Shown one piece after another: positions 14,069-38,618 of a DNA stretch of 38,618 nucleotides. The translations under genes and the position numbers were made by a program. The notes below the pieces were generated by a model, which saw nothing but the letters and a program-made list of their open reading frames with translations, was not told the DNA's origin and searched no databases. The stretch covers positions 1-38,618 of the forward strand of contig CAYVBI010000003.1 of NCBI GenBank assembly GCA_964448985.1. Reading direction: 5' to 3'. This stretch comes from an uncultured Dehalococcoidales bacterium. Its GTDB lineage: Bacteria > Chloroflexota > Dehalococcoidia > GIF9 > UBA5629. How positions within the stretch are numbered: the first letter of the stretch is position 1; the number at the start of each line of letters is the position of its first letter.

Positions 14069-14237
14069 GATTACACTCCTCTCTCTGTCTGCTGATGTAT
14101 CATCTCCCGTGATCCAATTACATGCTTAACGACATGCCCTGACCTCTATCAATAGTACAAAAATTATACTACAATATAAGACGCCTTTTGAGGAAGCGGG
14201 CTTTCGGGATTCTATAATCGAGCATCGGAGGGACCAT

Positions 14238-15446: not shown

Positions 15447-15513
15447 AACGATATATAACGCCTTAACAATGGGGCGCTTACAGGTCTGAGCGGATCCTCT
15501 TCGTTATATTCTG

Positions 15514-16997: not shown

Positions 16998-17154
16998 ATC
17001 AATACCCTCCTTAATCAGTCTGAACACGCTGAATTTTTGCTATGGCAATTCTACAACAGGACTACTGTATCAACAAATTATACTTGTGCCGCTTGTTTTA
17101 GCCAGCTAACGCAGCGTATAATCAGGCACAATTAATCAGAGGGGGTATCATATC

Positions 17155-17604
17155 ATGGCCGTTAATAAGGAGCTTGCAGCGCCATGCGGCCTGTATTGCG
17201 GGGTCTGTGGAATCCACATAGCGAGCAGGGACAACAATGATAAATTCAAAGAGAAGCTGGCTCCGATTTACGGCGCCAAACCCGAAGACATAGTATGCGA
17301 CGGCTGCCTCTCTCAGCGCGTCTTTGGATACTGCCGGATCTGCCCGATCAAGTCGTGCTGCTTTGACAAAAATATAGAAGGATGCCACCAGTGTAACGAG
17401 TTCCCCTGCCGATTCATCGATAATTTCCCCGTTCCCGTCGGCAAGAAGGTCATCTTGCGATGCGTCCCCAGATGGCGGGAAATCGGCACTGAACGGTGGA
17501 TACAGGAGGAACAGAAGCGCTATAATTGCCCTCATTGCGGCGCTGCGACCTTCCGTGGAGCCAAGCGTTGCCGCAGCTGCAAGGAGCCGATCGACCTCGA
17601 CTAA
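17155..17604 (+). CDS. DUF3795-like Cys-rich protein
   Basis: CGLYCGVCGI ... CDGC ... CRICPIKSCC ... CHQCNEFPC ... CPHCG...CRSC pattern. Confidence 0.65.
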   Translation: MAVNKELAAPCGLYCGVCGIHIASRDNNDKFKEKLAPIYGAKPEDIVCDGCLSQRVFGYCRICPIKSCCFDKNIEGCHQCNEFPCRFIDNFPVPVGKKVILRCVPRWREIGTERWIQEEQKRYNCPHCGAATFRGAKRCRSCKEPIDLD

Positions 17605-17614
17605 AACACCTGAA

Positions 17615-18754
17615 ATGCTTAGAGTAACTTTAGCCCTCATCCTAATTATGCTGGCGGCGGCCTGTTCCATGCCTCAGCCGCAGTCACCACCACAAGCCGA
17701 ACCGGAGACGGTTAAGATCGGGGCCTTACTGGGATTAAGCGGCGACATTGCAACGTCCTACGGTCAAGCTCAAAAAAAGGGAGTAGACCTGGCCGTAAGC
17801 GAGGTCAACGTTAGCAACTATCTCGGCACAGGCAAACGGCTCACGATTGTCGTTGCAGATGCCGGACCCGGGGCAGACACGGCAGTCTCCGCCATAACCA
17901 GATTGATCGAAGCTGACAACGTCTCGGCCATTATTGGCCCTACACTGTCTTCACAGGCTTTCAAGGCTGACCCGGTAGCGCAGGATCACAGTATCCCGGT
18001 GATAGCCGTAAGCAACACAGTTCCGGGTATAACACAAATGGGCGATTATATATTCCGCTGCAGCCTCCCCGAATCAACGGTCATCGGAGGCACCATAAAA
18101 GCTGCTGCCAGTCAGCTGCGCGTGGTGAAAGTCGCCTACCTGTGGGGAAAGGACGATGACTATACCATAGCCGGATACCAGGCCTTTAAGGATGCCGTAG
18201 TGAAGAACGGTCTGAAAGTAATGACGGACGAGACATTCAACCGTGGCGATACAGACTTTAAGCCCCAGCTTGAAAGGATCATAGCAAAAAGCCCCGATGC
18301 AATACTCGTTTCCGCGCTGGCCAAAGAAGCTGCGGCCATCATAGTACAGGCGCGGTCCCTCGGCTACACCGGTATCATAATCGGCGGCAATGGATTCAAT
18401 TCGACCGACGTCATCAAACAGGCTGGAAGCTATGCCGAGGGAGTGATGGCGGGTACTGCATGGAATATCGCCAGCATCAACCCCAGGAACCTGGAATTTA
18501 TCTCGGCCTATCAGAAAGCTTACGGAATCAAGCCGGACCAGTTTGCCGCTCAGGCTTATACAGGCACCTGGCTGCTGGCCAACGCCATACGGACCGCGGG
18601 CAGTTCTGAACCTCTGGCTATACGGGACGCGCTGGCCGGTATATCCAATTTTACTACCCCTATGGGATCTTTTAGCTTCACGTCGGACAGGGAACCTGTT
18701 CACCCCGCCGTAGTGCAAATCGTAAAAAACGGTAGATTCACAATCTTTAAATAG
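17615..18754 (+). CDS. ABC-type solute-binding lipoprotein (type I PBP, LivJ/branched-chain amino-acid-like)
   Basis: Lipoprotein signal MLRVTLALILIMLAAAC, then VKIGALLGLSGDIATSYGQAQKKGVDLAVSEVN, typical of Leu/Ile/Val-binding family proteins. The track start at 17555 would overlap the upstream gene. Confidence 0.8.
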   Translation: MLRVTLALILIMLAAACSMPQPQSPPQAEPETVKIGALLGLSGDIATSYGQAQKKGVDLAVSEVNVSNYLGTGKRLTIVVADAGPGADTAVSAITRLIEADNVSAIIGPTLSSQAFKADPVAQDHSIPVIAVSNTVPGITQMGDYIFRCSLPESTVIGGTIKAAASQLRVVKVAYLWGKDDDYTIAGYQAFKDAVVKNGLKVMTDETFNRGDTDFKPQLERIIAKSPDAILVSALAKEAAAIIVQARSLGYTGIIIGGNGFNSTDVIKQAGSYAEGVMAGTAWNIASINPRNLEFISAYQKAYGIKPDQFAAQAYTGTWLLANAIRTAGSSEPLAIRDALAGISNFTTPMGSFSFTSDREPVHPAVVQIVKNGRFTIFK

Positions 18755-18801
18755 TCATCTCTTACAGGGATTCCGGACGATAACATCAATTTCAAGGCCT
18801 G

Positions 18802-18810
18802 TGTTATAAT
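18802..18810 (+). promoter_or_regulatory. extended -10 element (TGtTATAAT) upstream of the DUF47 gene
   Basis: tgttataat ends 12 nt before the ATG at 18823, and there is no SD in between. Confidence 0.35.
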
Positions 18811-18822
18811 CGCTCCGTTAAA

Positions 18823-19455
18823 ATGTTTAAATTAAACCTGATGCCGAGAGGCGACAAGTTCTTCGATCTCTTTGAGGTCAGTTCAAAGAACATGGTCAAA
18901 GCAGCCGAAAGTCTGAAGGACCTGATATACAGCTGGGACTGCATCGACCAGAAACTGGAAGAGATGGACAGAATCGAGCATCAGGGTGATACCATAACTC
19001 ATGAGATTATGTTTCAGCTCAACCGTTCCTTCATAACACCTTTCGACAGGGAGGATATCGGCATGCTGGCTCACTCTCTGGACGATGTCACCGACCTCAT
19101 CCAGGCAACGGCCGATACCATGGTTCTCTACAAGGTCAGGGAACCCGGTAAGCGGGCACGTGAGCTTGCAGATATCCTGGTCCAGATTACTACCGAGGTG
19201 GAACATGTGATGCCCAGCCTCAGGCGTCATAATGCCAACCTTGAGAAAATCCTCAACAGCTGCGTGGAGATAAACAGGCTGGAAAACGTGGCGGACAAGA
19301 TTTATCGCACGGCGCTGAAGGAGTTGTTTGAGGATTCAAACGATATCGCAGATATCATTAAATGGCGCGAAATATACGAACACATGGAAAGCGCCACCGA
19401 TATGTGCGAAGATGTCGCCAACGTACTTGAAGGCGTAGCGCTGAAACACGCCTGA
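18823..19455 (+). CDS. DUF47 (PhoU-like, YkaA/TIGR00153-type) protein
   Basis: MFKLNLMPRGDKFFDLFEVSSKNMVKAAESL... and an all-helical repeat ending EHMESATDMCEDVANVLEGVALKH. Confidence 0.75.
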   Translation: MFKLNLMPRGDKFFDLFEVSSKNMVKAAESLKDLIYSWDCIDQKLEEMDRIEHQGDTITHEIMFQLNRSFITPFDREDIGMLAHSLDDVTDLIQATADTMVLYKVREPGKRARELADILVQITTEVEHVMPSLRRHNANLEKILNSCVEINRLENVADKIYRTALKELFEDSNDIADIIKWREIYEHMESATDMCEDVANVLEGVALKHA

Positions 19456-19520
19456 ACTCTCTGCCGGGCTACCCCGGTCCACAATGATTACAGACAGCTT
19501 TATATAGAGGATGAGGAAAT

Positions 19521-20093
19521 ATGACCATTAAAGAACTCGTTCAAAAAAACCGCAGTTACCGCCGCTATTATCAGGACGTTGCGGTCTCCCTCGATACCCT
19601 TAAAGAACTGGTTGACCTGGGAAGACTATCTGCATCTGCCATGAACCTGCAACCTCTTAAATATATATTATCCAATGATCCGGCCAGGAATGCCGTTATC
19701 TTCGCAAACATCGGATGGGCAGGCTACCTGAAGGACTGGAGTGGGCCCCCCGAGGGGGAGAGGCCTTCGGCCTACATCGTCATGCTGGGAGACACGGAGA
19801 TCAGCAAAAATGTGGTATGGGACCACGGGATCGCCGCACAGAGCATTCTGCTTGGCGCCACGGAAAGAGGGCTGGGTGGATGCATGATAGCCACGATACG
19901 CAAGACCGACCTGGCACAGGCGCTTAATATCAGCTCACGATATGAGATACTGCTGGTTATCGCCATTGGAAAACCCAGGGAGCAGGTCGTGATCGATCCG
20001 CTGGTTCAGGACGGCGACGTGAAATACTGGCGGGACAGCCAGGCCATACATCACGTGCCCAAGCGCGCGCTGAAAGATATCATTATCGGCTAA
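19521..20093 (+). CDS. nitroreductase family protein
   Basis: KNRSYRRY... LSASAMNLQPLKYI ... GIAAQSILLGATERGLGGCMI. Confidence 0.8.
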   Translation: MTIKELVQKNRSYRRYYQDVAVSLDTLKELVDLGRLSASAMNLQPLKYILSNDPARNAVIFANIGWAGYLKDWSGPPEGERPSAYIVMLGDTEISKNVVWDHGIAAQSILLGATERGLGGCMIATIRKTDLAQALNISSRYEILLVIAIGKPREQVVIDPLVQDGDVKYWRDSQAIHHVPKRALKDIIIG

Positions 20094-20114
20094 TCCTGCG
20101 TCTGATAAAACGGC

Positions 20115-20558
20115 TTAAATGGTAGTTCTTTTAACCAGCATCAACCGGTTACCTTCCGCTTCACTGTAGCTGTAATCAACCCGGTCCATCATCTTCTTCA
20201 TCATGTATATACCCAGGCCGCCCGCTTTACGGTCCTCAAGCCGGCTGTCCACTTCCGGCAGCGGGACGGAGCCGGGATCAAATTTATTACCGTGATCCCT
20301 GATAGTAACAATGATATCGTCGCCGTTCAGCGCACACGAAATCTGGAAAAAACCGCCCTTGCCGCCGTAGGCATGCTTGACCACGTTGGTACTCGCTTCA
20401 TCAACAGCTGTCTCTATAGCAAAAATATATTCGTCCAACTTCCGCTGCTGCAACCAGTTAACCGCAAATTCTACAATCCCCGGTATATCTTCCAGGACTG
20501 CACTCTCTATGGTGAGTGTGTCTTCATCCATGCCTGCCGTCTGCTGTTTATTGTCCAT
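20115..20558 (-). CDS. RsbW/SpoIIAB-like anti-sigma-factor serine kinase domain protein (HATPase_c_2)
   Basis: AVDEASTNVVKHAY (N-box-like) ... IRDHGNKFDP ... GGLGIYMMKKMMD (G-boxes). Single-domain protein of 147 aa. Confidence 0.7.
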   Translation of the reverse strand: MDNKQQTAGMDEDTLTIESAVLEDIPGIVEFAVNWLQQRKLDEYIFAIETAVDEASTNVVKHAYGGKGGFFQISCALNGDDIIVTIRDHGNKFDPGSVPLPEVDSRLEDRKAGGLGIYMMKKMMDRVDYSYSEAEGNRLMLVKRTTI

Positions 20559-20588
20559 TATGTATTTACCTGAGATCAGTTTGGACCA

Positions 20589-26745: not shown

Positions 26746-28278
26746 TTAATTACCTGTCTTCATTCCCTTGGAAGGCTTGGCCTGTAATTCAAGCAAAGCG
26801 CCTGAGGGCGAAGGTTGCTGGCTATTTGGAGCGTCACCGATCCTGGAAACCCTCTCACGCTTGAGATAGGTGCCACCGGCTACGATTATATCTATCAGAG
26901 CCTTGATCATTGTATAATCAAGAAACTGCTTATATCCGATAATGAAAAGAGGTGAATACAGCGCCAGTTTGAGATCATCATCGGCCACCAGTATAGCAAT
27001 TATGGACAGCAGCAACTGCAACATGGCAAAGAGGGCGAAGGCCAGCACCAGAGTCATCCATTCGCCATCGATTATCATTATGACCGAAGTTACCATAACA
27101 AGCAGGCTGGCAAACGGCACCAGTGTCATGGATAACAGCATGTACGGAAACGTAAGCTTGCTCATAATTCCAAACCTTGGATTAAAGAAGGCGTCTCGAT
27201 GTTTCCAGAAATTTTGAAAATCACCACGGAACCAGCTCAGGCGCTGGCGATAGACGTCGCGTAAAGTCTCCGGGGCTTCCGTGTAACATACTGCCTCGTT
27301 ACTACCGTGCAGTATCTGGTGCGATTTAAGCATCTTGATCGTTATGTCGAAATCCTCGAGCAGATAGTCGGGATCATAGTATCCCGCTTCCTCGAGAGCT
27401 GTCTTACGAAAAGCGCTGAAAGCGCCTGACGCCACAGTTAGTGAACCGAAATTCTCAAAGGCTCTCCTGACGATTTGAATCTGTACGATGTATTCCAGCG
27501 CCTGCAGCTTGGTCAGTAAATTATTACGGTTAAATACTTTCAGGTTCCCTGCTACGCCCGCCACCTGTGGATCCTCAAAGCCCCTGACCATCTCGGTTAT
27601 GGCGGCGCGTGAGATCATGCTGTCTGCATCCACGGTCATTACGATTTCACCCGAGCATATAGCAATACCCGTATTCAGTGCGGCGAATTTCCCGCCATTG
27701 ACACGCCGTACCACCTTAACACCGCGCCGACTGAATTCACTGGCCACGGAGTAAGTATTGTCCTTTGACCCATCGTCGACCACAATGATCTCTTTATTGG
27801 CATAATCAGCTTCGATAAGGGTTTCCAGTGTCCTTGCCAGCACTTTTTCCTCGTTATATGCGGGTACAATGATGCTGACACGCGGTTTATAGGAGCTTGG
27901 CTGGAATACCTCTTTTTTCTGTTTTATTTTATGGAAAATCGCCAGGGGTACGGTCAGGAAATTGATCAGCATGGTAAATATCAAAGAAACCAGGAGCACA
28001 TATATCAGGGCCGAAGGGACCACATCCCACAGGGTTACCACGAAGATTATGAATATAATTGTAAAGATCACAAGCAGTGACGTGAGATTCTGCCACTGGC
28101 TTGGCTTTGACTCCCTGGACTGTTTGCCTTTCACCAGCCTGGACAGAAAATGGAATATCACGATGATAGCCAGCGCGCCCAGCGCAATCCAAACTGATTC
28201 GACGGGCATAAAATAAAATATGCCCATGAGCAATATCAAAAATAGGGCTGCGACAATAAAAACGGCAATGTTTTTCAT
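26746..28278 (-). CDS. membrane-embedded processive family-2 glycosyltransferase (PgaC/NodC/cellulose-synthase-like synthase)
   Basis: TM helices at both the N- and C-terminus flank a GT-A domain: VSIIVPAYNEE, VVDDGSKD, VDADS (DxD), LLEDFD (ED) and YRQRLSWFRG (Q-R-x-x-W variant). Confidence 0.8.
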   Translation of the reverse strand: MKNIAVFIVAALFLILLMGIFYFMPVESVWIALGALAIIVIFHFLSRLVKGKQSRESKPSQWQNLTSLLVIFTIIFIIFVVTLWDVVPSALIYVLLVSLIFTMLINFLTVPLAIFHKIKQKKEVFQPSSYKPRVSIIVPAYNEEKVLARTLETLIEADYANKEIIVVDDGSKDNTYSVASEFSRRGVKVVRRVNGGKFAALNTGIAICSGEIVMTVDADSMISRAAITEMVRGFEDPQVAGVAGNLKVFNRNNLLTKLQALEYIVQIQIVRRAFENFGSLTVASGAFSAFRKTALEEAGYYDPDYLLEDFDITIKMLKSHQILHGSNEAVCYTEAPETLRDVYRQRLSWFRGDFQNFWKHRDAFFNPRFGIMSKLTFPYMLLSMTLVPFASLLVMVTSVIMIIDGEWMTLVLAFALFAMLQLLLSIIAILVADDDLKLALYSPLFIIGYKQFLDYTMIKALIDIIVAGGTYLKRERVSRIGDAPNSQQPSPSGALLELQAKPSKGMKTGN

Positions 28279-28338
28279 TTTACTCAGCTGTTATGGGCCG
28301 CGATGCGCGGAGTATACCAACCAGACTATTAGAGACAA

Positions 28339-30630
28339 TCACGTCAGTTTTCGCAGGTCCTGCTGCTCGATAATGTCTATTTTTTGTTGCATAGCAAACT
28401 GTTTGGCTTGTGTGCTTATCTCCGAAAAACCCAGGAAAACCTTGTTGCGGATACCTGCATCAAAGGCCGCGGCATCGAACTTCGACAATTCATCCAGGCC
28501 AAGCGGCTGACCGGTTTCGCTGCCGATGCCGATCGCAATCGTAGGTACCACTATCTTATCATCACGCCTGGCAAAAATATCGAAAATATGTTCGATACCT
28601 GATTTGCCGAGAATCAGTGCCCTCTCATATACTTCATACCCCTTATTGCGAAGGAACCTCACGATGATGCCACGCGCATTGGCCGCCACCGAACCGGAAT
28701 GGTTTGCTCCCGCTTCCACCCTGCTCTGCATTCCGATATTGGAACGGTCGAGGTGAGTGATATCTGCAACCACCGTCGCCAGAGTTTTAGCTTCAAATGC
28801 TCTGATCATTTGCCGGCCGGCGAAATTCAATGCCTCCTGCCCAAGCTTGGGAATGGCTATCACCACTTTATAGTTTATCCCGATATCATAAGCCCGTGTA
28901 TCGAACCTGAAAAGCGATTCAAGCCCAACTTCCGGTTCCCCCGATGGTGCAACAAGTATACCTATACCGAGATTGATCTTGGTGATAATATCGTCCCTGA
29001 TGGCAAGCACATCCACGGTATGCACTGCACCCGAACGTCCCGTCAGCTGAGCCAGCTCGTGGACCTGATAGCCCTGGTGTTTCAGGAAATCGACAAGCTG
29101 CGTCTTAGGTTTAAGCTGGAATTCCAGCCACCCCTTTTTATCGGGGCTGAACTGGTACGAATATGCCTCAACTTCTTTCAGCTCTTCGGAAGCCCATATT
29201 TTACGTGTCTTCATATTGCGCCATTTCACGACCGGTACAGTAAAGACCTCAGTGCAATCCTGGCACCTGTAATGGATGCCGACATTGCGGTAATCGGTGC
29301 CGATCAATCTTAAATCCTTTCGGCACTTCGGGCAGACGTACCTGCTATCCTGTTTAAAATCCTTGTCAAGCCCCACGTATCCACAGGAAAAATGCTCGAC
29401 AAGTTGTCCTTTAATTATGTTGGACGAGTCACAGCGCGGGCACCTTTCAATAGGAACAAGTTGAAATAGCCCGTCAGGGTCAACATAAAATTTTTCATAC
29501 GATTGCTTGAGCAATATGCCATTATCGGCGAGAGATTCGAGAATGTTTAGCGTGTCAATCTCGGAAGTATCAAGCAGGCTGCTAACTGTCGGATAAGCGA
29601 ATCCCATTTTATAACTGAAATCGACCACAGGGTTGATATCAGGAAGTTTACCGCTTACCAGCGCATCTACAAGCTTGACGACTCTCGCGTCCTCGAGAAC
29701 TGCCGCACCAGCATCTTCCTGAGCAGGCTGCGCCTTGGCCACGTAAGCAGATTGTTGTGCCGGAGGATTAATCACGATGGGTGAGGGCTGCTTTTTTATA
29801 TCGCGCCCAAGCGGAGGTACCACTATGGGTGCTTGCTCCCGCATCTGAGGCGGCGCTGCCGGCCTGGGTACTATCACGACCGGCTGCTCCAACGACTCCG
29901 GTGTCTGGTAAACCTGTGCTGCAGGCATAGGCGGGGCCGGCTGTACATATGCCTGTGGTTGCACATATGGCTGTTGTACAGGTGGCGCCTGTGGCTGCGG
30001 AGGAGCTTCGTACTGCTGGGGCTCTGGCCGAGGCCTGATGATTATCCTTTCCTGTCCCGAAGCCGCCTGTGGTTGGGCATCCATTTCAGGTCTGACCGGT
30101 GCAGGCTGTGGCTGGCTGTATACCGGCCCGCGGGCAGCAGGCTCCGGTGCACGTACCGGCGCACCCGCTTCCTTCTCCTTGGGCCTTGACCTGGTCGGAG
30201 GTCTAACAACTGTTTCCCGGGCAGCGGGCGCCGCCTGCTTCGCAGCCGCCTCTTCAGCGGCGCCCTCAGTGCCGGGCCGTCTCAGCAATGCTTTGATGCG
30301 CGCCAGCAACTCCCTCGGGCTGATGGGTTTGCGTAAATAAAGGTCAAAACCCAGTTCCTCAACACGAGACCATGCATCCGAGTCCGGAATGGTTCCGAGA
30401 AGAACAATCAATGCGCTCTGCTGTTGCCTGATCTTGAGACACGCTTCATAACCGCTGACATCGGACAGCTCATCGTCAATTATTATGACATCGTAATTGG
30501 TTTTGTCCATCATCACCAGACCGTCAAGACACCCCGACGTTCCGTTTGCATCAAGGCCGCTCTGTTGCAGGATCTCGACGTTCTTCTCTTTTAAGACGGA
30601 ATCGCTTGAAAGAAAGAGAATCTGACTCAT
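28339..30630 (-). CDS. atypical response regulator: REC + long Pro/Gln/Ala-rich linker + multi-Cys zinc-ribbon region + two tandem degenerate Mrr/PD-(D/E)xK-like domains
   Basis: REC domain at residues 1-118 (acceptor D52 in VIIIDDE, T80, K101-P). Linker at about residues 120-305. Cys motifs CPRC...C...CPKC...CQDC at residues 397-459. Repeat units at about 509-615 and 650-760 share FL..GY.V.E.A..G.SG..H..D..A.RDD......IGI. SD gaggga lies 6 nt before the ATG. Confidence 0.75.
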   Translation of the reverse strand: MSQILFLSSDSVLKEKNVEILQQSGLDANGTSGCLDGLVMMDKTNYDVIIIDDELSDVSGYEACLKIRQQQSALIVLLGTIPDSDAWSRVEELGFDLYLRKPISPRELLARIKALLRRPGTEGAAEEAAAKQAAPAARETVVRPPTRSRPKEKEAGAPVRAPEPAARGPVYSQPQPAPVRPEMDAQPQAASGQERIIIRPRPEPQQYEAPPQPQAPPVQQPYVQPQAYVQPAPPMPAAQVYQTPESLEQPVVIVPRPAAPPQMREQAPIVVPPLGRDIKKQPSPIVINPPAQQSAYVAKAQPAQEDAGAAVLEDARVVKLVDALVSGKLPDINPVVDFSYKMGFAYPTVSSLLDTSEIDTLNILESLADNGILLKQSYEKFYVDPDGLFQLVPIERCPRCDSSNIIKGQLVEHFSCGYVGLDKDFKQDSRYVCPKCRKDLRLIGTDYRNVGIHYRCQDCTEVFTVPVVKWRNMKTRKIWASEELKEVEAYSYQFSPDKKGWLEFQLKPKTQLVDFLKHQGYQVHELAQLTGRSGAVHTVDVLAIRDDIITKINLGIGILVAPSGEPEVGLESLFRFDTRAYDIGINYKVVIAIPKLGQEALNFAGRQMIRAFEAKTLATVVADITHLDRSNIGMQSRVEAGANHSGSVAANARGIIVRFLRNKGYEVYERALILGKSGIEHIFDIFARRDDKIVVPTIAIGIGSETGQPLGLDELSKFDAAAFDAGIRNKVFLGFSEISTQAKQFAMQQKIDIIEQQDLRKLT
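28351..29106 (-). repeat. internal protein-level duplication (two ~105-aa nuclease-fold-like units)
   Basis: Unit A (28786-29106): LVDFLKHQGYQVHELAQLTGRSGAVHTVDVLAIRDD...LGIGI...GLESLFRFDTRAYDIGI. Unit B (28351-28683): IVRFLRNKGYEVYERALILGKSGIEHIFDIFARRDD...AIGIG...GLDELSKFDAAAFDAGI. Confidence 0.75.
29716..30273 (-). repeat. coding low-complexity Pro/Gln/Ala-rich linker
   Basis: Examples: QPQPAPVRPEMDAQPQAA, PQPQAPPVQQPYVQPQAYVQPAPPMPAAQVYQ, VPRPAAPPQ. In frame within the 763-aa ORF, with no regular DNA period. Confidence 0.85.
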
Positions 30631-30676
30631 ATCCGGTCCCTCACGTTAATAAAACTCATATTTTTATTCTCAACTT

Positions 30677-31426
30677 TTATATATACTCGACCGCATTTTG
30701 GGCGATTTTATAACCGTTCTCTTCCTGGACAATTATTGCCGGGTTATCGGGATTATCCTCAAGTTTTTCACGCAGGTGACGAATATACTGCTGCAGATTT
30801 GTTACGCAATCCACATATTCTATTCCCCAAATCTTGGTGAGTATATCGTCTTCTGAGATCATCTTACCTTCATGTGAAACAAGATACTTCAGAAGGTTTA
30901 ATTCGGTAGTTGAGAGCTTAACCTGCTCCCCATCTTTCTGAACCGTACCTGCTGATACGTCCATCCTGATTTTCTTTACCGCAGGTATGGCCCTAGCACC
31001 AGCCGCCGGTGCATCTTTGATGTCCGCCTTCTTTTTAGCAACCCCTCTTTTACCGCGATGCCTGAATACGGCCTTAACACGAGCAAGGAGCTCATTATGA
31101 TTAAAAGGTTTGACAATATAATCATCCGCACCCATCTCCAGGCCCCTGACTTTATCCGTCTCATCGCCCCTTATAGTGAGTATAACGATGGGTACGTCGC
31201 TGTGGTTGCGTATTTCCTTCAATACCTTCATGCCGTCCATGTCGGGCAACCCAAGATCAAGAATGATCATATCAGGCGCCTCAGACTTCATTAAAGAAAG
31301 TCCGTCTGCACCCTTCACTGCCGGTATTATCCTGACTTCCGGCATGTGCATCTCAAATATCAGGTTTGTCACTTCCCTGATATCAGCATTGTCCTCAATG
31401 AGCAGGATTTTCAATTGTCCCTGCAT
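30677..31426 (-). CDS. OmpR-family response regulator (REC + winged-helix) with extended Lys/Ala-rich linker
   Basis: KILLIEDN, MIILDLGLPDMDG (acceptor Asp), VKPF. C-terminal LSTTELNLLKYL...IWG...YIRHLREKLE winged helix. SD ggagtg. Confidence 0.9.
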   Translation of the reverse strand: MQGQLKILLIEDNADIREVTNLIFEMHMPEVRIIPAVKGADGLSLMKSEAPDMIILDLGLPDMDGMKVLKEIRNHSDVPIVILTIRGDETDKVRGLEMGADDYIVKPFNHNELLARVKAVFRHRGKRGVAKKKADIKDAPAAGARAIPAVKKIRMDVSAGTVQKDGEQVKLSTTELNLLKYLVSHEGKMISEDDILTKIWGIEYVDCVTNLQQYIRHLREKLEDNPDNPAIIVQEENGYKIAQNAVEYI

Positions 31427-31443
31427 ACGACTATCACTCCACG

Positions 31444-32676
31444 CTATTTTTCATGTATCGGTAATGCGAACGAGAAGGTGCTGCCCTTCCCTACATCGCT
31501 CTGCACCCAAATTGCACCACCGTGCAGTTCCACGATTTGTTTGCTGATGGCCAGCCCCAATCCCAATCCGGGTATTCCCGACCTGTCCGAAGACGGGTGG
31601 TAATAGGGGACAAACAGCTTCCTTTTCTCTTCGTTTGGTATGCCTGGCCCTGTATCCTGTACATTGATAACCAGCCTGTTTCCATCCTTAGCAGCCTTGA
31701 GGAAGATCTGCCCGCCTTCCGGTGTAAATTTAATTGCATTGGATAAAAGGTTCAGCAAAACCTGTTCAATACGTTGATCATCGGCATTTATCTTAATATA
31801 CGGTTCCACTTCTAAACTCAGCGTCTGCTTCTTTTGTCTGGCCAGTGATAATACCTGGTCAGCAACCTCAGCGGCCAACATCGAGAAGTCGAAGTCCTTC
31901 TTTGCGATCCCATATGACTCATCCTTATTCTTGGACAGGTTAATCAATTCATTCAGGCGGTTTTGCAGGCTCGACGCGCTACGCGAAATATTCTGCGCCA
32001 ACTTAAGCAAAATCTCCTCATGCTGCCTGTCCAGCTCCTCAATCAACAGGCCTGTGGAAGCTATGATCGCGGTAAGAGGTGTCTTCAATTCATGGCTCAG
32101 AGCACTTAAAAACAGATGCGTATGTGTAATCTCATCCTGTTGCTTGGCGATTTCATTATCTGTGGGCCCGCTGGTGACTCTGCGACAGACTTCCGAGATG
32201 CTTGAGCTGACGGCTGCCATTAATTTCAGCTCGTTGACCGTAAAGATATCGGTACTGGCAGATAATCCTCCAATAATACCCAGCAACTGTCCCCCCAATA
32301 TCACCGGAGAAGCAATAAATGATTGATATCCATTTTGTACGGCTGATTCCCAGCGATAATTGGCATCGTTTGCCATATTGTTGCAGAATAGCGGTTTGCG
32401 TGTTTGCGCCACTACTCCAATCATGTCGTTGCCCACGGTCGTAGCCTCAAGTTCCTTGATAATTTGATCGGGTAAACTATGCTGAATCACCAGTGTCAGC
32501 GTTTTGTTGCCGGGGCTGTACTTCTGCACCCAGCAAACATCAAGATCAATTACATTCCCGAGCTCCCAGAGCACACCGTCCAGTATCTCCCTTTCGGACA
32601 AAGAACTGGATACTATATCAGAGATATCAGAGAGAACGTATAGGTACTTATTCTTTTGTTGGCTCTGCTGTTGCAT
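31444..32676 (-). CDS. cytoplasmic GAF-domain sensor histidine kinase
   Basis: No TM helix. N-terminal GAF-like region of about 170 aa. H-box [16 protein letters not shown]-box [10 protein letters not shown]-boxes VQDTGPGI and [18 protein letters not shown]. Confidence 0.9.
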
Positions 32677-32789
32677 ACTAACTCAGCTTCCATTATAACT
32701 AAATTCATCAATATGTCAATCCTGAAGGCCGAAAAATGTCCTCTCGCCTGCCGACGTAACGATGATATTAAGGCCACGCTAATCGCCTT

Positions 32790-32818
32790 TTGACATGGTT
32801 CCATCTCACGGTTAAACT
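32790..32818 (+). promoter_or_regulatory. sigma70-like promoter of the UDP-sugar dehydrogenase gene
   Basis: TTGACA (32790-32795), 17-nt spacer, TAAACT (32813-32818). Lies 48 nt upstream of the ATG at 32866. Confidence 0.55.
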
Positions 32819-32834
32819 ATGCTAATCTGATTGA

Positions 32835-32853
32835 ATGGTAAATCAATTACCAT
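32835..32853. promoter_or_regulatory. 7-5-7 inverted repeat (atggtaa-atcaa-ttaccat) between the -10 element and the SD
   Basis: Perfect 7-bp arms read directly from the sequence. Candidate operator or 5'-UTR hairpin. Confidence 0.3.
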
Positions 32854-32865
32854 GGGTGAGGTAAA

Positions 32866-34200
32866 ATGACACGACCACAATTAACTGTTAACGATCTGAG
32901 AAACCTGGAGAGCAGTATCCGAGATAAATCGGCTGATATAGGGGTTGTGGGATTGGGGTATGTGGGGTTGCCCCTGGCGCTGGCCTTTGCTGAAGCAGGA
33001 TTCAATGTGACCGGTGTTGATGCAGATAAGGGACGTGTCAATAAGATTATCCGGGGCACGTCTTACCTGCTGGATATTGAATCGGCTCGTCTAAAAAAAG
33101 CTGTTGCCAAAGGACGGTTAAAAGCTACCACCAGTCAATCAGCACTGCGCAGAGTAGATACGATCATTATCTGTGTTCCTACTCCACTTACCAAGACCAA
33201 GGAGCCCGATCTGACGTATATCGTCAGCGCTACCAATGATATCGCCCGTTTCCTGCGTCTGGGTCATCTGGTTATTTTGGAGAGCACGACTTACCCGGGC
33301 ACTACGCGGGAGATTGTGTTGCCGCTACTGGAATCCACCGGCCTCAAGGTGGGTGTGGACTACTTCCTGACCTTTTCGCCCGAACGTATCGATCCGGGCA
33401 GCCGGAAGTTTACTATCAGGAACACACCCAAGATTGTCGGGGGCATGGAACCTACGTCTACCAAACTCGCCGCACTGCTGTACGGACACGTATCCGACAA
33501 GGTCCTCGAAGTATCCACACCGGAAGTGGCCGAGATGGATAAAGTCTTCGAGAATGTATTCCGCAGCGTCAATATCGCTCTGGTAAACGAGCTCGCCAAG
33601 CTTTGCGAAAAGATGAACATAAACGTGTGGGAAGTAATCAAGGCGGCATCCTCCAAACCATTCGGTTACATGCCGTTTTATCCGGGCCCCGGGGTGGGCG
33701 GCCATTGTATTCCTCTTGATCCATACTATCTCGCCAGCAAAGCCAGAGAGTATTTTTTTCACACCAGGTTTATCGAACTGGCTGCCGAAATAAATGAAAC
33801 GATGCCTGAATACATCGTCGAGCAAATCGTGGCTGCGCTTAACACAAGGAGTAAAAGCGTAAAAGGGGCCAAAATACTCATTCTGGGCGTGGCCTACAAG
33901 AAAGATATTGAGGACATCAGAGAGTCACCCGCATTAAGAGTTATCGAACTGCTTATCGAGAAGAAAGCCGCGCTCCATTACCATGATCCTTACATCCCTG
34001 ATTTTAAAGAGGGAAACCATAAGCTCCGGTCGATCAAGCTTACCAAGAAAGTATTTAGCAACTATGATTGCGTGGTAATACTGACCGATCACAGCTGCTA
34101 TGACCTGAAAGCTTTAGCAAAGGAAGCTAAGCTGATATTCGATACACGCGGATGCACCGTCGGCATCAACTCCGCAAATATCATCCGTCTGGGCGAATAG
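32866..34200 (+). CDS. nucleotide-sugar 6-dehydrogenase (UDP-GlcNAc/ManNAc/Glc dehydrogenase family)
   Basis: IGVVGLGYVGLPLALAFAEAGFNVTGVD Rossmann motif and catalytic-Cys motif GPGVGGHCIPLDPYY. Substrate not resolvable. Confidence 0.85.
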   Translation: MTRPQLTVNDLRNLESSIRDKSADIGVVGLGYVGLPLALAFAEAGFNVTGVDADKGRVNKIIRGTSYLLDIESARLKKAVAKGRLKATTSQSALRRVDTIIICVPTPLTKTKEPDLTYIVSATNDIARFLRLGHLVILESTTYPGTTREIVLPLLESTGLKVGVDYFLTFSPERIDPGSRKFTIRNTPKIVGGMEPTSTKLAALLYGHVSDKVLEVSTPEVAEMDKVFENVFRSVNIALVNELAKLCEKMNINVWEVIKAASSKPFGYMPFYPGPGVGGHCIPLDPYYLASKAREYFFHTRFIELAAEINETMPEYIVEQIVAALNTRSKSVKGAKILILGVAYKKDIEDIRESPALRVIELLIEKKAALHYHDPYIPDFKEGNHKLRSIKLTKKVFSNYDCVVILTDHSCYDLKALAKEAKLIFDTRGCTVGINSANIIRLGE

Positions 34201-34330
34201 CGCGTATCTCCCTGTTAATAACGTCCGCATCGGTTTGCCGCGCACGAGGGATTGAGGAAATCTATCGTCATATGCCTGTCATATCCCGCAAATAGCTCCC
34301 GGCAACGCCCGGGCACATGTGATATTTTCG

Positions 34331-35152
34331 TTATCGTTGCGAGATTTTCCTTATCTTGCCGTCTATTATCGACTGCACCAATCCGGGGAAGAGCCTTTTC
34401 ATAAAATATGTATACTTTGTGCCTGACCCCGGCAGAATAAGGAACTGCCCCCTGCCCATACCAGCGATTACATCCCTGGCAACATCGATCGGTTTAATAA
34501 TGGAAGCGGATGAGGAAATGGCTTTGGTCTCCTCAGGCTTGATCTTATTGGCCCTGTCGAGCATCGGTGTATCGACATCCGGGGGACACAGCACGGAAAC
34601 GGAGATGTTGTACCGCTTCAATTCACTTCTTAAAGCTTCGGAGAAGCCTATCACCGCAAACTTAGATGCGCTGTAGGCGCTCAAGCCGAAAACTCCTATA
34701 TAACCGGCAACGGAGGACACATTAATAATGTATCCGCCACGCTTCTTCATATAGGGCAGCAGAATCGCAACGGTATTCCAGGTCCCGTTCAAGTTGATGT
34801 GAACAATTTCATCGAATTTAGTGTAGGAAATATCTTCAAAGCGTTGGGGATAGGAAACACCTGCGCTGTTAATTAGAATATCCGGGCTGCCGAAATCGAC
34901 GGCCACCTTGCTAAGTAGATTTTCGGCCTGTGCATGTTGCGAAACATCAAGCCGGACCGCCAGGAAACGTTGTTTCTGCGATACCCTGTTCCGTTCGATT
35001 TTCGTCAACGCCTTATCGAGTTGCTCCTGGCCCCGGGCGAAGATCACCACGTCGGCGTCCCTGGCGGCCATTTGTTCCGCGCAGGCCAGGCCTATGCCGC
35101 TCGATCCTCCCGTAATGAATGCGATTTTCCCCGCAAAGTCTTTAAACTTCAT
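34331..35152 (-). CDS. classical short-chain dehydrogenase/reductase (SDR)
   Basis: IAFITGGSSGIG (TGxxxGxG), NSAG, catalytic S...YSASK. Last gene in the same-strand series after the 2-KPCC-like gene. Confidence 0.85.
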   Translation of the reverse strand: MKFKDFAGKIAFITGGSSGIGLACAEQMAARDADVVIFARGQEQLDKALTKIERNRVSQKQRFLAVRLDVSQHAQAENLLSKVAVDFGSPDILINSAGVSYPQRFEDISYTKFDEIVHINLNGTWNTVAILLPYMKKRGGYIINVSSVAGYIGVFGLSAYSASKFAVIGFSEALRSELKRYNISVSVLCPPDVDTPMLDRANKIKPEETKAISSSASIIKPIDVARDVIAGMGRGQFLILPGSGTKYTYFMKRLFPGLVQSIIDGKIRKISQR

Positions 35153-35252
35153 TATAAATCAGCAACCCCCGTGCTTTAAGGTGTGCAATTTTCAAACAAC
35201 CCCGATGCTCAGCTATATTAGCCGCTCGATATACTCATGTAAAGCGCGGGCC

Positions 35253-36749
35253 CTAACCCAGGTCCACCAGATTCTTCATACCGGAGCGCAATCGTGAGAG
35301 CTGGATAAAATGCGTGGGATTGATGAAGAGCTCTGTGAGATTGGCTATATCATCGATAGTCGCACCTTTCTTCAGCAGGTACAGCAGGTACTGGAATGAG
35401 TCCTTACCGCCATAGCCCACGTGCTGTGCGCCCAGGAATTTACGGGTCTTTGCATCATAGATAATCTTCTGGAACCCGGACAGGTCCGGCCATTGGTGAG
35501 CGAATTCCATGGTCCCCTCGGCCAGGGGTAAAGGCAGCCAGTTCTTGTAGCCCTGTATGGGCATCCTGGCTACAAAGACCTGCCCGACCTTCTCTTTGGC
35601 CTCTTTCTCGGTCATGCCCACCCAGGTGGTCTCGTAGAATGTATGCAACGTATCTGCAAATAGCTCGGTCTCGAATTCTGCGGGAGCTCCGAGTATATTC
35701 TTGGCCGCCATCATGCCGCCCTGCCTGGCCTTCCACATCTCCATGACGCCGCCTGTGATATCGCCACTGGCGTATATCCCGGGTACGTTGGTTGCCATGT
35801 GTTTGTCAATGATTATCTCTTTCTTGGGACCGGTTTTAACACCGACCGGAGTGACAATCTCCGAGCGCGGCGCGCATCCTGTTCCCAGATACACAAGATC
35901 TGCCTTAATTACCTTCTCCACACCGTCTTTCCCCTTGACCGTCACGGATTTGACCGAGCCGCTACCGTTTATAGAGACCAGCGTGGTCTCGTCAAGCACC
36001 GGCAGGCCCCTGATCTTCATCATGCGAAGAGTATATTCCCTTACATCATCGTCGATGGGGAACTGGCTGAGAGCCGGCATCATCTCGACCACGGTAGTGT
36101 TGCAGCCGACCGCGTTGAAAAAGGCAGCCCAGGGCAGCCCGCTCTTGGAGGCGCCCACCACTACAACATCTTTGGGCTCGTAATCCAGCTCAAGAAAATC
36201 TGCGTAAGTATATACGCCCTTGAGTTTAGTTCCAGGCACGGGGGGCACAGAGGGCCCGGCGCCAGCCGCCACGATGATGTTCTTTGTTTTAAACTCGCCC
36301 TTACCCTGAACTGAGACAGTGTGCGCATCAAGAACGGAGGCACGCTGGTTGAGCAAAAACTGTAGTTTAAGCTGCTCCTTGCTCTGGTGGAACATAAAAT
36401 CAAATACATACTCCCGGCCTATATGGTAGTCCCTCAGTATTGGTAATATTTCAACCTTACCATTTTTCCCGGGGAACTTGGGCCAGTATTCTTTCTTGTC
36501 CCAGATTCTCGCCTTGTCCAGCTCAACGGCTATCTCGTAAAGATAGTGGTGCAGCACGCAGGCGTTTTTACAGCATTTACCGCCCAGGTGGTTGTCAGCC
36601 TCGATGGTAAGCTGGTTGCCGCCCATGGCGCGGAAGTACGAGGAACCGAACCTTCCTGAAGCTCCGCCGCCGATAAAAATGGCGTCCCATTCCCGGGTGG
36701 TTGAATCATAATTGTCATACGGCCTTCGGCTATCGTAAAAAGTTGTCAT
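35253..36749 (-). CDS. FAD-dependent pyridine-nucleotide-disulfide oxidoreductase, 2-ketopropyl-CoM oxidoreductase/carboxylase (2-KPCC)-like
   Basis: DAIFIGGGASGRFG FAD motif. Redox pair C59-CKNA-C64. Second Rossmann motif VVVVGASKSG. C-terminal ELFINPTHFIQLSRLRSG has F-x4-H where canonical members carry H-x4-E. SD aggagag. Confidence 0.7.
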   Translation of the reverse strand: MTTFYDSRRPYDNYDSTTREWDAIFIGGGASGRFGSSYFRAMGGNQLTIEADNHLGGKCCKNACVLHHYLYEIAVELDKARIWDKKEYWPKFPGKNGKVEILPILRDYHIGREYVFDFMFHQSKEQLKLQFLLNQRASVLDAHTVSVQGKGEFKTKNIIVAAGAGPSVPPVPGTKLKGVYTYADFLELDYEPKDVVVVGASKSGLPWAAFFNAVGCNTTVVEMMPALSQFPIDDDVREYTLRMMKIRGLPVLDETTLVSINGSGSVKSVTVKGKDGVEKVIKADLVYLGTGCAPRSEIVTPVGVKTGPKKEIIIDKHMATNVPGIYASGDITGGVMEMWKARQGGMMAAKNILGAPAEFETELFADTLHTFYETTWVGMTEKEAKEKVGQVFVARMPIQGYKNWLPLPLAEGTMEFAHQWPDLSGFQKIIYDAKTRKFLGAQHVGYGGKDSFQYLLYLLKKGATIDDIANLTELFINPTHFIQLSRLRSGMKNLVDLG

Positions 36750-36781
36750 TCTATCTCTCCTGCATCCTAATTTATTAAGGC

Positions 36782-36997
36782 TCAGTCTTTTAATACGTGC
36801 GTAACCGTACGTATACAGTCAAGCCTGTTACAGGTTGTCTCTATCTTCTCGAAATTGCGGAAAGCCAGCCCGAAGTTGTCAGCGCTCAGCTTAACTTTGC
36901 AGACAAAGCATTTGAGCTTGCCGGCAACCAGGTTGTCCCAGATTCCCAGGTATTGCAGGTGGTCCTTAAGTTCGCCCTGATAAGATTGTAGACGCAT
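36782..36997 (-). CDS. 71-aa 4-Cys (CxxC...CxxxxC) small protein
   Basis: Strong SD aggagg 6 nt before the ATG. Cys residues at 30, 33, 56 and 61 (CFVC...CNRLDC). Sits between the LarA-like and 2-KPCC-like genes with 38- and 32-nt gaps. Confidence 0.55.
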   Translation of the reverse strand: MRLQSYQGELKDHLQYLGIWDNLVAGKLKCFVCKVKLSADNFGLAFRNFEKIETTCNRLDCIRTVTHVLKD

Positions 36998-37035
36998 TTT
37001 ACGCCTCCTGATTAATATAATGACTGGAAATTATT

Positions 37036-38490
37036 TTACTTTACGTAAAACCTGGGCCTGACTCTGGTCCAGAAGGACGGACAGGCCATGACCCGGGGAT
37101 TCTTGCCGACGATTTTTTCGGCAATTTTCATTGCGTCCGCAAAATTCCTGGCAGGCGTGCAGCCGACGTCGCGCACCGAGCCGGGCCCTCCGGTACCGCT
37201 GACCTGCACCTGCGCCAGGGGATTGTCCATGCCCGGCACGCCGGCCATGATGATTTTATTGGCATGGTTTAGCGCATACTCACTCTCATACATCAGCCAG
37301 AAGCCGTGCACCGGCGCATATGCATAGGCGTGCCTGTATTTAAAGATGAGGTCCTCGCGGTGCATAAACTCCTCCTGGTAAATAGACAGTTCCTGCATGG
37401 AAAAACAGTTCCGGTAAAGGTCGAGTATTTCTGCATATGAAGGATGCGACCTCTCGTCTATGGTCCCGTCGCAGTGTGCCAGTGCTATGACTACTCCGCC
37501 CTCCCTCAACAGGGGCTTGTTGACCCACATGCGTACCGGGGCACATGCTGCGGCGAGCGCTATCAGTGGATTACTGGTCTCGCCGTACAGCGAGTAGCGG
37601 GGCACGCCGTATATAAGCACATCGGCCTGAGGCACCTCCATGTGATAGATGCTTTCGGCAAATTTCCAGGTAGGCTCGTTGATCTCAGGCGAATAACCTG
37701 CAAAAATACCGGCCGGTGCGCCACCGGCAGTGGGTACGACATCTACGTAAAATACACGTTTGCCGGTATGTTTTTCGATCTGGGCCATGACTGCTTCCTT
37801 GTGAGAGCGGTACATCATGGTATGCTGATTGCCGTGGCAGGAATCAGGATGGCCGACAACAGGAAAACCGTGTGTCGAAGTCATGCTGCGCGTGCTGGGG
37901 TAACCGATTATCACGCCTGTCCCAGTCATGCCGCCCCAGTTCGAAACGACGACTGTGCCGGTATATATAAAGAGTTCGGAATCTTCCAGCGCCCTGTTGT
38001 ACTCCACATAATCGCCCATGGCAGATGTGCCCATATATACAAGGTTATCCGCATCATGGCAGTCATGGTTTATGACCCTTGAGGCGCTGCCGGAGGGTGC
38101 AAACCTGTCATATATGGCCGGGCCCAGGTAAGCCCTTAACTGAGGATCGGTCCATTTGCAGTGATTGCCGCTGCCGCACAGCAAATATATATTTTCTTCC
38201 TTCACACCAGCCTTTAGCAGCTCTTCAATGAGAATAGGGATAATCATCTGCCGCGGCTTCCCGGGCCGGGAGGGATCATCAAAACCGATGGTGACTTTGC
38301 CGTTACGCGCCTTTTTGGCCAGATCAGCCAGAGGTGGAGCACCGATCGGCTTTGCAATGGCCTCCCGTATGACTTTTTCGGGATCCTTTAAGGCCGGGGG
38401 ATTGGGTATCTCTCCGACTACTGTGTCTTCCGGCACCTCAATGTCAATCTTCCTGTCCCAATAGTCTGCCTGGATCGTTTTATTACTCAC
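37036..38490 (-). CDS. LarA-like (lactate racemase N-terminal domain / DUF2088) protein
   Basis: AIAKPIGAPPLADLA...KVTIGFDDPSRPGKP...LLCGSGNHCKWT...VINHD follows the LarA_N pattern (PIGS..L, D.TRP, ATG.HR, NHD). Start moved to the GTG at 38490, which has aaggagg 6 nt upstream; the track TTG at 38508 lies inside that SD. Confidence 0.65.
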   Translation of the reverse strand: MSNKTIQADYWDRKIDIEVPEDTVVGEIPNPPALKDPEKVIREAIAKPIGAPPLADLAKKARNGKVTIGFDDPSRPGKPRQMIIPILIEELLKAGVKEENIYLLCGSGNHCKWTDPQLRAYLGPAIYDRFAPSGSASRVINHDCHDADNLVYMGTSAMGDYVEYNRALEDSELFIYTGTVVVSNWGGMTGTGVIIGYPSTRSMTSTHGFPVVGHPDSCHGNQHTMMYRSHKEAVMAQIEKHTGKRVFYVDVVPTAGGAPAGIFAGYSPEINEPTWKFAESIYHMEVPQADVLIYGVPRYSLYGETSNPLIALAAACAPVRMWVNKPLLREGGVVIALAHCDGTIDERSHPSYAEILDLYRNCFSMQELSIYQEEFMHREDLIFKYRHAYAYAPVHGFWLMYESEYALNHANKIIMAGVPGMDNPLAQVQVSGTGGPGSVRDVGCTPARNFADAMKIAEKIVGKNPRVMACPSFWTRVRPRFYVK

Positions 38491-38618
38491 CGGTATCCTC
38501 CTTAACAATCAAGATCGATCGGTATTAATCTCCCGATCAGATTCAATGGCGGTCTCATAATATCACAGCAATAACACCAAACCAAACCACTTAATTAATA
38601 TCCCTGGCATTAGACAAA

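Follow-up and report, generated by a model that had tools for sequence, protein, structure and literature searches.

We analyzed a 38,618-nucleotide stretch (the window) of contig CAYVBI010000003.1 from an uncultured Dehalococcoidales bacterium, in which four genes provide the enzymes of a conserved catabolic module that consists of a TauA/SsuA-type ATP-binding cassette (ABC) importer and, diverging from it, LarA-like, mini-protein, flavoprotein, and, in part of the loci, dehydrogenase genes. All four lie on the minus strand. They encode a 484-residue LarA-like nickel-pincer-nucleotide (NPN) enzyme with a Lar_N domain, related to the single-His LarA proteins (37036..38490); a 71-residue mini-protein with four cysteines (CxxC…Cx4C) from a small conserved family (36782..36997); a 498-residue FAD/disulfide oxidoreductase of the 2-KPCC type, placed in a 'Lys/Asp' subclade by its match to PDB 1mo9 and its motifs (35253..36749); and a 273-residue classical short-chain dehydrogenase/reductase (SDR), an accessory member of the cluster (34331..35152). 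Judged from sequence, the module may be an O2-independent variant of the coenzyme M (CoM)-type thioether reductive carboxylation known from aerobic alkene oxidizers, a reading that we hold tentatively and to which we give somewhat less than an even chance.

A scan of species-representative genomes recovered the flavoprotein in 17 Dehalococcoidia/Chloroflexota metagenome-assembled genomes (MAGs) at 85 to 97% identity, and the LarA–mini–KPCC gene order was kept in all 17 of these species-level Dehalococcoidia genomes wherever the contig permits. A preliminary description of this DNA had listed the four genes as one operon, and they do form a conserved cluster; synteny holds for these three, while the SDR gene follows the flavoprotein gene in only 17 of the 31 dereplicated Dehalococcoidia-type loci and is not a core member. 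To count linkage more widely, we used 72 dereplicated LarA-like loci with at least 48% identity to the window protein, divided into three identity groups. A 2-KPCC-like gene is adjacent in 33 of the 35 dereplicated loci whose contig continues in both directions (18/18, 13/15, and 2/2 per identity group), the 18 being those with room on both sides among the 31 Dehalococcoidia-type loci. The partner flavoproteins are 36 to 52% identical to the window protein and as low as 36 to 38% identical to each other, and the pair occurs in Dehalococcoidia, in Deltaproteobacteria/Syntrophorhabdales, in Clostridia, and in unplaced lineages. The gene arrangement is not due to chance. One more distant locus (L094) has a 42%-identical LarA homolog with larB, larC, and a further unassigned open reading frame (ORF) between them and a TAXI-TRAP system, without a flavoprotein, and the LarA/flavoprotein linkage is therefore confined to one LarA subclade (at least 48% identity).

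The LarA-linked loci are also set apart by a missing gene. The absence of an epoxyalkane:CoM transferase (EaCoMT) from the window, noted in the preliminary description, extends to the related loci that we counted: an EaCoMT gene of the Meth_synt_2 type was found in 0 of the 72 LarA-linked loci. Canonical 2-KPCC loci (43 to 47% identity; Actinomycetes and Proteobacteria) and a further clade at 62 to 64% identity instead contain EaCoMT-like genes and SDRs resembling hydroxypropyl-CoM dehydrogenase (HPCDH), and no LarA; the EaCoMT-like gene is present in most canonical loci and in all loci of the 62 to 64% clade. Clusters with a LarA-like gene and clusters with EaCoMT exclude each other; the lack of LarA in the second kind has a single exception, the distant L080.

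By domain search the flavoprotein is a class-I pyridine-nucleotide disulfide oxidoreductase (DSOR). Its nearest solved structure is 2-KPCC itself (XecC of Xanthobacter autotrophicus Py2, PDB 1mo9; 1.4e-124, 420 bits), with which it can be aligned end to end, and the next best DSOR is far behind (2.9e-29, 105 bits). Lipoamide dehydrogenase and MerA match at about 1e-29/1e-28, and neither they nor glutathione reductase get past about 3e-29, so the protein does not group with lipoamide dehydrogenase or MerA and its original identification as a 2-KPCC-type enzyme stands. The redox Cys pair (Cys82/Cys87 of 2-KPCC, CxxNAC) is kept as C59-CKNA-C64 and is invariant in 14 close homologs. The Phe501/His506 dyad, which replaces the His/Glu of other DSORs, is kept as F475-INPT-H480 and is conserved in all subclades, and the equivalents of Arg56/Phe57 and Arg365 are R33-F34 and R342, with R33 and R342 invariant. 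Common to all subclades (Xanthobacter numbering) are the interchange Cys pair, 'GRFG', '(K)AR', and 'F-x-N-x-x-H-F-I-Q-L', and the window protein shares the 'FxNPTHFIQLSR' C terminus with the Xanthobacter enzyme.

Three changes separate the window clade from the canonical one, each invariant within P0001-P0016. His84 is replaced by Lys (K61), with a Cys motif of KC[CP]KNAC in the window clade versus [ST]CPH[NQ]AC in the canonical one; His137 is replaced by Phe/Tyr (F116 in the window) followed by an invariant Asp (D117), whereas the canonical clade retains His at both positions; and the NADPH-site Arg after β2 is replaced by Glu ('VVEMM' versus 'V[VL]RS/T'). A Glu at the end of the β2 strand of the dinucleotide fold goes with a preference for NADH, and use of NADH by the flavoprotein is predicted from this residue. 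Arg56 and Arg365 are reported to hold the CoM sulfonate (Nocek et al. 2002) and His137 and His84 to contact the oxo group of the substrate through water (Kofoed et al. 2011). If these roles hold, the retained Arg residues and the lost His pair would mean a substrate that shares its thiol end, but not its alkyl end, with that of 2-KPCC. In 2-KPCC, Phe501 shields the enolate from protons, and His506 and Arg365 define the CO2/anion site (PMC8358701).

The window flavoprotein is 43 to 47% identical to 2-KPCC homologs of the canonical clade. Sequence and most signature residues place it in the 2-KPCC family, as a new subclade rather than an ortholog, because three family features fail: the His84/His137 pair, the NADPH site, and the EaCoMT/HPCDH context. 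The Xanthobacter enzyme has EaCoMT and R-/S-HPCDH as neighbors, while the window flavoprotein stands with a LarA-like gene, the mini-protein, and a sulfonate importer in an anaerobic host. An exact-sequence look-up found no identical sequence on record. A variation on the enzyme occurs in L088, where the LarA-adjoining flavoprotein (3963-5510) has lost the second redox Cys (KCPKEGA) and a divergent KPCC-like paralog (ECHVCRC) is encoded just upstream (2341-3864), a pair that suggests a heterodimer or a division of labor.

The LarA-like protein has a Lar_N domain (2.3e-34), yet all curated NCBIfam LarA equivalogs score far under their cut-offs (best NF052592, 172 bits versus 740; Ni_dep_LarA, 101 versus 460). 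Its nearest solved relatives are 9q2u and 9q3j of the single-His LarA subfamily (3e-53 by sequence and 1e-92 by profile search). We compared residues by profile alignment to LarA of L. plantarum (LarA Lp) and by column counts over 37 homologs (40 to 92% identity). The NPN-binding residues compared (Asp72, Arg75, His108, and His200 of LarA Lp) are retained in the window protein; D71/D72, R75, H110, and H207 are invariant or nearly so among the homologs, and K112 is also conserved. The second catalytic His (His174 of LarA Lp) is N184 in the window protein, and this column contains Asn in 24 homologs, Tyr in 6, Gly in 3, Ser in 2, and His in none. An equivalent of the NPN-tethering Lys184 is absent, with a two-residue deletion and Thr191 at the aligned position. 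These residues indicate an NPN enzyme that is not a two-base racemase, and a true racemase role is unlikely because both the second catalytic His, here Asn, and the tethering Lys are missing.

The solved single-His relatives LarASp and LarABw have no lactate racemase activity and no assigned substrate, and proteins of this type were proposed to be unidirectional or different in function (PMC12611868). The window protein shares with 9q2u and 9q3j the catalytic His, the Asn at the second-His position, and the Asp, Arg/Lys, and Ni-His cofactor residues. It differs in the deletion of the tethering Lys, in a divergent alignment, and in context, as the single-His subfamily is found with glycolytic or carbohydrate genes (PMC12611868) and the window protein with a KPCC-like flavoprotein and a sulfonate importer. 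The window protein belongs to the LarA superfamily and resembles the single-His subfamily, without the tethering Lys and with a different gene context.

The 71-residue ORF is a real gene, based on its equal length and position in 20 loci, a dN/dS of 0.02-0.10 against nine orthologs, and four Cys (CxxC-x22-C-x4-C) that are invariant across 34 family representatives. The family is small, with 36 representatives in 1.8 billion, and no Pfam family matched above its cut-off, the only match being a sub-threshold one to DraIII. An AlphaFold2 model reached a pLDDT of 85.8; Foldseek found no significant match to it (best E = 0.35), and the nearest non-significant ones were Zn-finger/zinc-ribbon proteins. 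The mini-protein is probably a small zinc-ribbon-like partner protein, and it could act as a structural or redox partner of the flavoprotein. Canonical 2-KPCC clusters often have a small zinc-ribbon gene of the FmdB type (CxxC…CxxC), next to EaCoMT and KPCC or between the two (L027, L034, L056, L061, L066, L072, L076, L077, and L082); it is of another sequence family than the window mini-protein and in a similar position. In L001 (9713-17007), a 72%-identical KPCC and the mini-protein occur without LarA, followed by HPCDH-like SDRs, a class-III aminotransferase, a DctPQM TRAP transporter, and an SsuABC-like importer; this locus looks like an amine-entry variant of the module.

The SDR is an adh_short protein (3.4e-56), and the domain calls of the preliminary description are correct for all three larger proteins. 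Its nearest NCBIfam model is PRK06181 (188 bits versus a cut-off of 215), and no close characterized relative was found in NCBIfam or among solved structures. SDRs of the classical-type clusters match 4gh5 best (2e-62), which we take to be S-HPCDH; 4gh5 is not among the 60 matches listed for the window SDR. The window SDR thus does not appear to be HPCDH-like, and a pair of R-/S-hydroxypropyl-CoM dehydrogenases is replaced here by a single SDR of another kind. Where the SDR gene follows the flavoprotein gene, the gap is down to 10-17 nt (L016 and L011).

The partner genes of the module lie past the end of the window, and we read this upstream flank from L009 and from L123, a metagenome contig of 1.2 Mb with 98.06% nucleotide identity to window positions 27041-38618. 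The first part of a divergent intergenic region occupies 38491..38618 (no strand) and runs on in L123 to an opposite-strand TauA/SsuA-type ABC importer (SsuA-like substrate-binding protein, permease, and ATPase), followed by a major facilitator superfamily (MFS) transporter, a 3-hydroxyacyl-CoA dehydrogenase-like gene (HADH), an RsbRD_N protein, and dsrM. L009 has the same layout, and L005 and L023 have dsrMKJOP upstream. The gene context as first described did not include the most informative neighbors, which lie just past the end of the window, namely the importer, the MFS transporter, the HADH-like gene, and dsrMK. The binding protein is nearest to the aliphatic-sulfonate family TIGR01728 (156.6 bits versus a cut-off of 163.5; SsuA_fam range of 156.6-189.9 bits across loci), and its best PDB matches are TauA (2.7e-15) and SsuA. 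A bicarbonate/nitrate system feeding the carboxylase was considered and is disfavored by these matches, CmpA/NrtA reaching only about 2e-4. An importer of this type usually adjoins the pair: 20/31 and 14/37 loci have an SsuA-like gene no more than 3 kb away, many contigs ending early. The window also carries ComEA/ComEC, a four-subunit pyruvate:ferredoxin oxidoreductase (PFOR), and two-component systems; with dsrMK and the PFOR nearby, the surroundings are anaerobic in character, as suspected from the start, and the host is an anaerobic bacterium.

Gene identities, residue patterns, and cross-phylum linkage are what the sequences show; the reaction scheme that follows, with CoM as its thiol, is inferred from them, as are its carbon substrate and the part played by the mini-protein. 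The importer would bring in a small sulfonate, either CoM itself as a carrier or a CoM-type conjugate. The single-His NPN enzyme would then act on a hydroxylated substrate by hydride borrowing of the 'hidden redox' kind, so that a hydroxy/oxo-alkyl thioether is formed or activated, standing in for the epoxide-dependent EaCoMT and stereospecific HPCDH steps. This chemistry is plausible because NPN performs intermolecular hydride shuttling on another protein scaffold (PMC13524815). Where present, the SDR would oxidize the hydroxyl and yield NADH. With NADH and its Cys59/Cys64 pair, the flavoprotein would cleave the C-S bond of the β-oxo thioether via Cys59, and the Phe/His dyad would exclude protons so that the enolate reacts with CO2 to give a β-keto acid. 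Carbanion/CO2 chemistry is favored because all clades keep this dyad rather than the His/Glu of ordinary disulfide reductases. Neighboring β-keto-acid enzymes would handle the product: BKACE genes occur in L090, L092, L098, L100, L104, L105, L109, L116, L124, L143, and L168, HADH with MFS in L009, L103, and L123, and AtoE-like transporters in L176. The overall conversion would be redox neutral, as NADH made by the SDR is used by the flavoprotein, which would suit an anaerobe. A more specific version, in which the LarA-like protein is a nickel-pincer 'hydrogen-borrowing' non-isomerase that forms or exchanges the C-S bond (alcohol, diol, or hydroxy acid + CoM to hydroxy/oxo-alkyl-CoM + water), is improbable in our estimate.

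Several points weigh against an O2-independent carboxylation pathway. We know of no precedent for C-S bond formation by a LarA-type enzyme. Because other residues stand in for the His84/His137 pair, reactions at the oxo end may not be those of 2-KPCC. The SDR and the mini-protein are not universal, the SDR being missing in L005, L006, L020, L023, and also L176. The window and the ±10-kb surroundings of the Dehalococcoidia loci contain neither CoM biosynthesis genes nor larB, larC, or larE; larB and larC do adjoin LarA-like homologs in L090/L168 and L094. The Dehalococcoidia module adjoins dsrMK, which fits sulfite respiration at least as well. CoM as the thiol would follow only from the conserved arginines and the importer type, and one of these arginines has been described differently, with Arg365 in an anion pocket with His506 (PMC8358701).

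The dsr genes lead to a different account, the dissimilation of an organosulfonate (CoM or another C2/C3 sulfonate) for sulfite respiration, which we regard as rather unlikely. The sulfonate would be imported as a growth substrate, the flavoprotein would do no more than free or reduce CoM-type disulfides or thioethers, with no carboxylation step, the LarA-like enzyme would interconvert thiol, alcohol, and aldehyde by hidden redox (e.g., CoM to isethionate via sulfoacetaldehyde), another enzyme would release sulfite, and Dsr would reduce it. Such a scheme accounts for the TauA/SsuA type of the binding protein, for dsrM/K(JOP) within 10 kb in 14/31 Dehalococcoidia-type loci, including L123, and for the L090/L168 pair, which lies among an IslA/HpsG-type glycyl-radical enzyme, a SauS-like dehydrogenase, and a ComF homolog. 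The dsr adjacency is lineage specific, however (1/37 in the 60-75% group), and known desulfonating enzymes (IslA/HpsG, Xsc, SuyAB, and CuyA) are absent from the window and from the L009/L123 flanks, one being found only in the L090/L091 version. Sulfite respiration also leaves unexplained the recurrence of BKACE, HADH, and AtoE-like genes, and the proton-excluding Phe/His dyad is retained in all clades. Direct reductive desulfonation by the flavoprotein (β-oxo sulfonate to enolate + sulfite) was set aside, as thiolate attack on a sulfonate sulfur is chemically implausible.

The preliminary description itself had proposed that a LarA-like racemase/epimerase acts on (R)/(S)-hydroxyalkyl thioethers or hydroxy acids so that one stereospecific SDR can feed both enantiomers to the carboxylase. 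LarA-family membership is compatible with this, as are the frequent adjacency of an SDR (17/31, with further SDRs in L088, L092, L100, and L104) and the difference from classical clusters, which need two HPCDH-like SDRs where these loci have one or none. The model is nonetheless quite improbable, given the Asn in place of the second catalytic His in 24/37 homologs, the lack of any homolog with His there, and the lack of lactate racemization by the closest solved relatives (PMC12611868). It also requires an SDR that lies outside the conserved core (e.g., absent in L005, L006, L023, and L176) and is not HPCDH-like in the window, and leaves the origin of the thioether unexplained without EaCoMT. 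Finally, source annotations label homologs of the flavoprotein 'dihydrolipoamide dehydrogenase', and its best NCBIfam match by E value is lipoamide_DH (178 bits versus a cut-off of 409), so that the locus might be read as a chance adjacency of housekeeping genes, with an ordinary lipoamide dehydrogenase, MerA, or glutathione reductase-type enzyme and a spurious small ORF. This is next to impossible and is contradicted by the 2-KPCC match (1e-124, versus 3e-29 for lipoamide dehydrogenase), the Phe/His dyad in place of His/Glu, the adjacency in 33/35 loci across phyla, and the constraint on the mini-protein ORF (dN/dS of 0.02-0.10).

Outside Dehalococcoidia, the LarA/flavoprotein pair has other neighbors. 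Syntrophorhabdales-type Deltaproteobacteria (L092/L093 and many of L096-L175) have the order IclR–(BKACE)–SDR–flavoprotein–LarA–SsuABC, and a Clostridia MAG (L176) has two AtoE-like transporters–SsuABC–flavoprotein–LarA–σ54 activator. Two unplaced layouts are two flavoproteins–LarA–SsuABC–SDR (L088/L089) and ComF-like–flavoprotein–LarA–SsuA-like–LarB–LarC (L090/L091/L168). In L090 (6145-7401; also L168 and L091), the first gene of the latter layout encodes a bacterial homolog of methanogenesis marker 16/CoM synthase ComF (TIGR03287, 506 bits versus a cut-off of 364; PMC12068725), which in L090/L168 stands where other loci have the importer. Immediately downstream of it come the KPCC-like and LarA-like genes, and after these an orphan SsuA-like protein, LarB, LarC, and an ArsM-like methyltransferase. 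The ComF homolog may be a sign that a bacterium makes or breaks down CoM. Elsewhere in L090 are an IslA/HpsG-type sulfonate glycyl-radical enzyme (17088-19580; 7kq3 1e-243, NF048011 1109 bits), a SauS-like acylating sulfoacetaldehyde dehydrogenase (4355-5767; 562 bits versus a cut-off of 600), and BKACE (112-972). Together, these genes make up a C2/C3-sulfonate island around the LarA/KPCC pair.

The SDR-less L005/L023 region (11676-20573) continues from the flavoprotein gene into a MerR regulator, two radical-SAM genes, AhbA/B-like genes, and siroheme/heme biosynthesis, with dsrMKJOP upstream, and looks like a sulfite-respiration neighborhood. The 62 to 64% identical 'Lys/Asp-type' KPCC clade (L002-L004, L007, and L025; Ca. 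Dadabacteria) is found in classical-looking clusters with EaCoMT-like, FmdB-type Zn ribbon, and S-HPCDH-like SDR genes. These clusters also hold CoA transferases, an ADP-forming acyl-CoA synthetase, pyridoxal phosphate (PLP) enzymes, a decarboxylase, and a second DSOR, and may represent a CoM pathway that carries the genes for making its CoM.

We confirmed the layout of the four genes in the window: the gaps of 38, 32, and 100 nt reported in the preliminary description between these minus-strand ORFs are exact. The mechanical ORF of the LarA-like gene extends over 37036-38508, from a TTG at 38508. The start is most likely the GTG at 38490, as first annotated, because an AAGGAGG Shine-Dalgarno sequence lies 6 nt upstream of it and homologs are 484 to 485 residues long. 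Shine-Dalgarno sites also precede the mini-protein gene (AGGAGG) and the flavoprotein gene (AGGAGA), and the SDR gene has only a weak ribosome-binding site. The promoter/terminator scan found no terminator-like sites in the three intergenic gaps and a promoter-like match in the 100-nt gap ahead of the SDR gene. As the regional count of such matches equals the shuffle expectation, this consensus scan says nothing firm about co-transcription. tRNA and Rfam scans of the window gave no matches. Two other parts of the window are recorded here. Downstream of the PFOR genes, three tandem paralogs of about 350 residues (10177-13428) have a C-terminal 2x[4Fe-4S] region and an N-terminal domain without a Pfam match, and are 29 to 30% identical to a 361-residue protein beside HADH/MFS/SsuABC/LarA/KPCC in L103. 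A large response regulator (28339-30630) combines a long Pro/Gln-rich linker, a TackOD1 output domain, and a C-terminal Mrr_cat nuclease-like domain, and is kept in syntenic Dehalococcoidia loci.

To our knowledge, 2-KPCC has been studied only in aerobic alkene/epoxide degraders. Divergent relatives with the carboxylation signature prove to be widespread in strict anaerobes, namely Dehalococcoidia, Syntrophorhabdales-type Deltaproteobacteria, and Clostridia. Among disulfide oxidoreductases, 2-KPCC has been described as the one enzyme that carboxylates (PMC8358701). Our literature search found no paper that connects 2-KPCC to LarA, Dehalococcoidia to 2-oxopropyl-CoM, or nickel-pincer enzymes to either sulfonates or CoM. 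The pairing gives an orphan LarA subfamily, left without a substrate by a 2025 structural study, a concrete and testable biochemical context, and the conserved cross-phylum two-enzyme module suggests a shared, testable role in anaerobes for an orphan nickel-enzyme subfamily and a family of CO2-fixing flavoenzymes regarded as 'aerobic'. The module hints at a new route in anoxic sediments and aquifers that fixes CO2 or cleaves C-S bonds. Anaerobic bacteria might make use of CoM, either scavenged or produced by way of a ComF homolog, and the poorly understood dsr-carrying Dehalococcoidia gain a candidate organosulfur function. Were the LarA-like enzyme to form C-S bonds, strict anaerobes would have an epoxide-free entry to CoM-dependent reductive carboxylation via an NADH-linked 2-KPCC variant. 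In anaerobic bacteria, a CoM-dependent pathway would be without precedent, with CoM scavenged by the TauA/SsuA-type importer or made by the bacterial ComF homolog, and the LarA scaffold would have its first non-racemase reaction.

Two known systems resemble the module in part. Anaerobic C2/C3-sulfonate respiration (TauABC/TRAP import, sulfoacetaldehyde enzymes, IslA/HpsG, and Dsr) shares with it the TauA/SsuA-like importer, the dsrMK genes next door in Dehalococcoidia, and, in L090, the position of the pair beside IslA/HpsG-type, SauS-like, and ComF-like genes. It differs from the window locus, which has no known desulfonating enzyme and whose two core enzymes have, by our literature search, no counterpart in described sulfonate pathways. 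The aliphatic epoxide carboxylation pathway (EaCoMT, R-/S-HPCDH, 2-KPCC, and CoM biosynthesis) has in common with the module a terminal enzyme of the 2-KPCC type, an SDR that is often present, a component able to supply CoM, and a small Cys-rich protein near the flavoprotein gene, which in canonical clusters is the FmdB-type Zn ribbon. The module departs from it in the absence of EaCoMT and HPCDH orthologs and of a monooxygenase, which would be impossible in an anaerobe; an importer or ComF homolog takes the place of the xcb biosynthesis genes, and an NPN enzyme is added.

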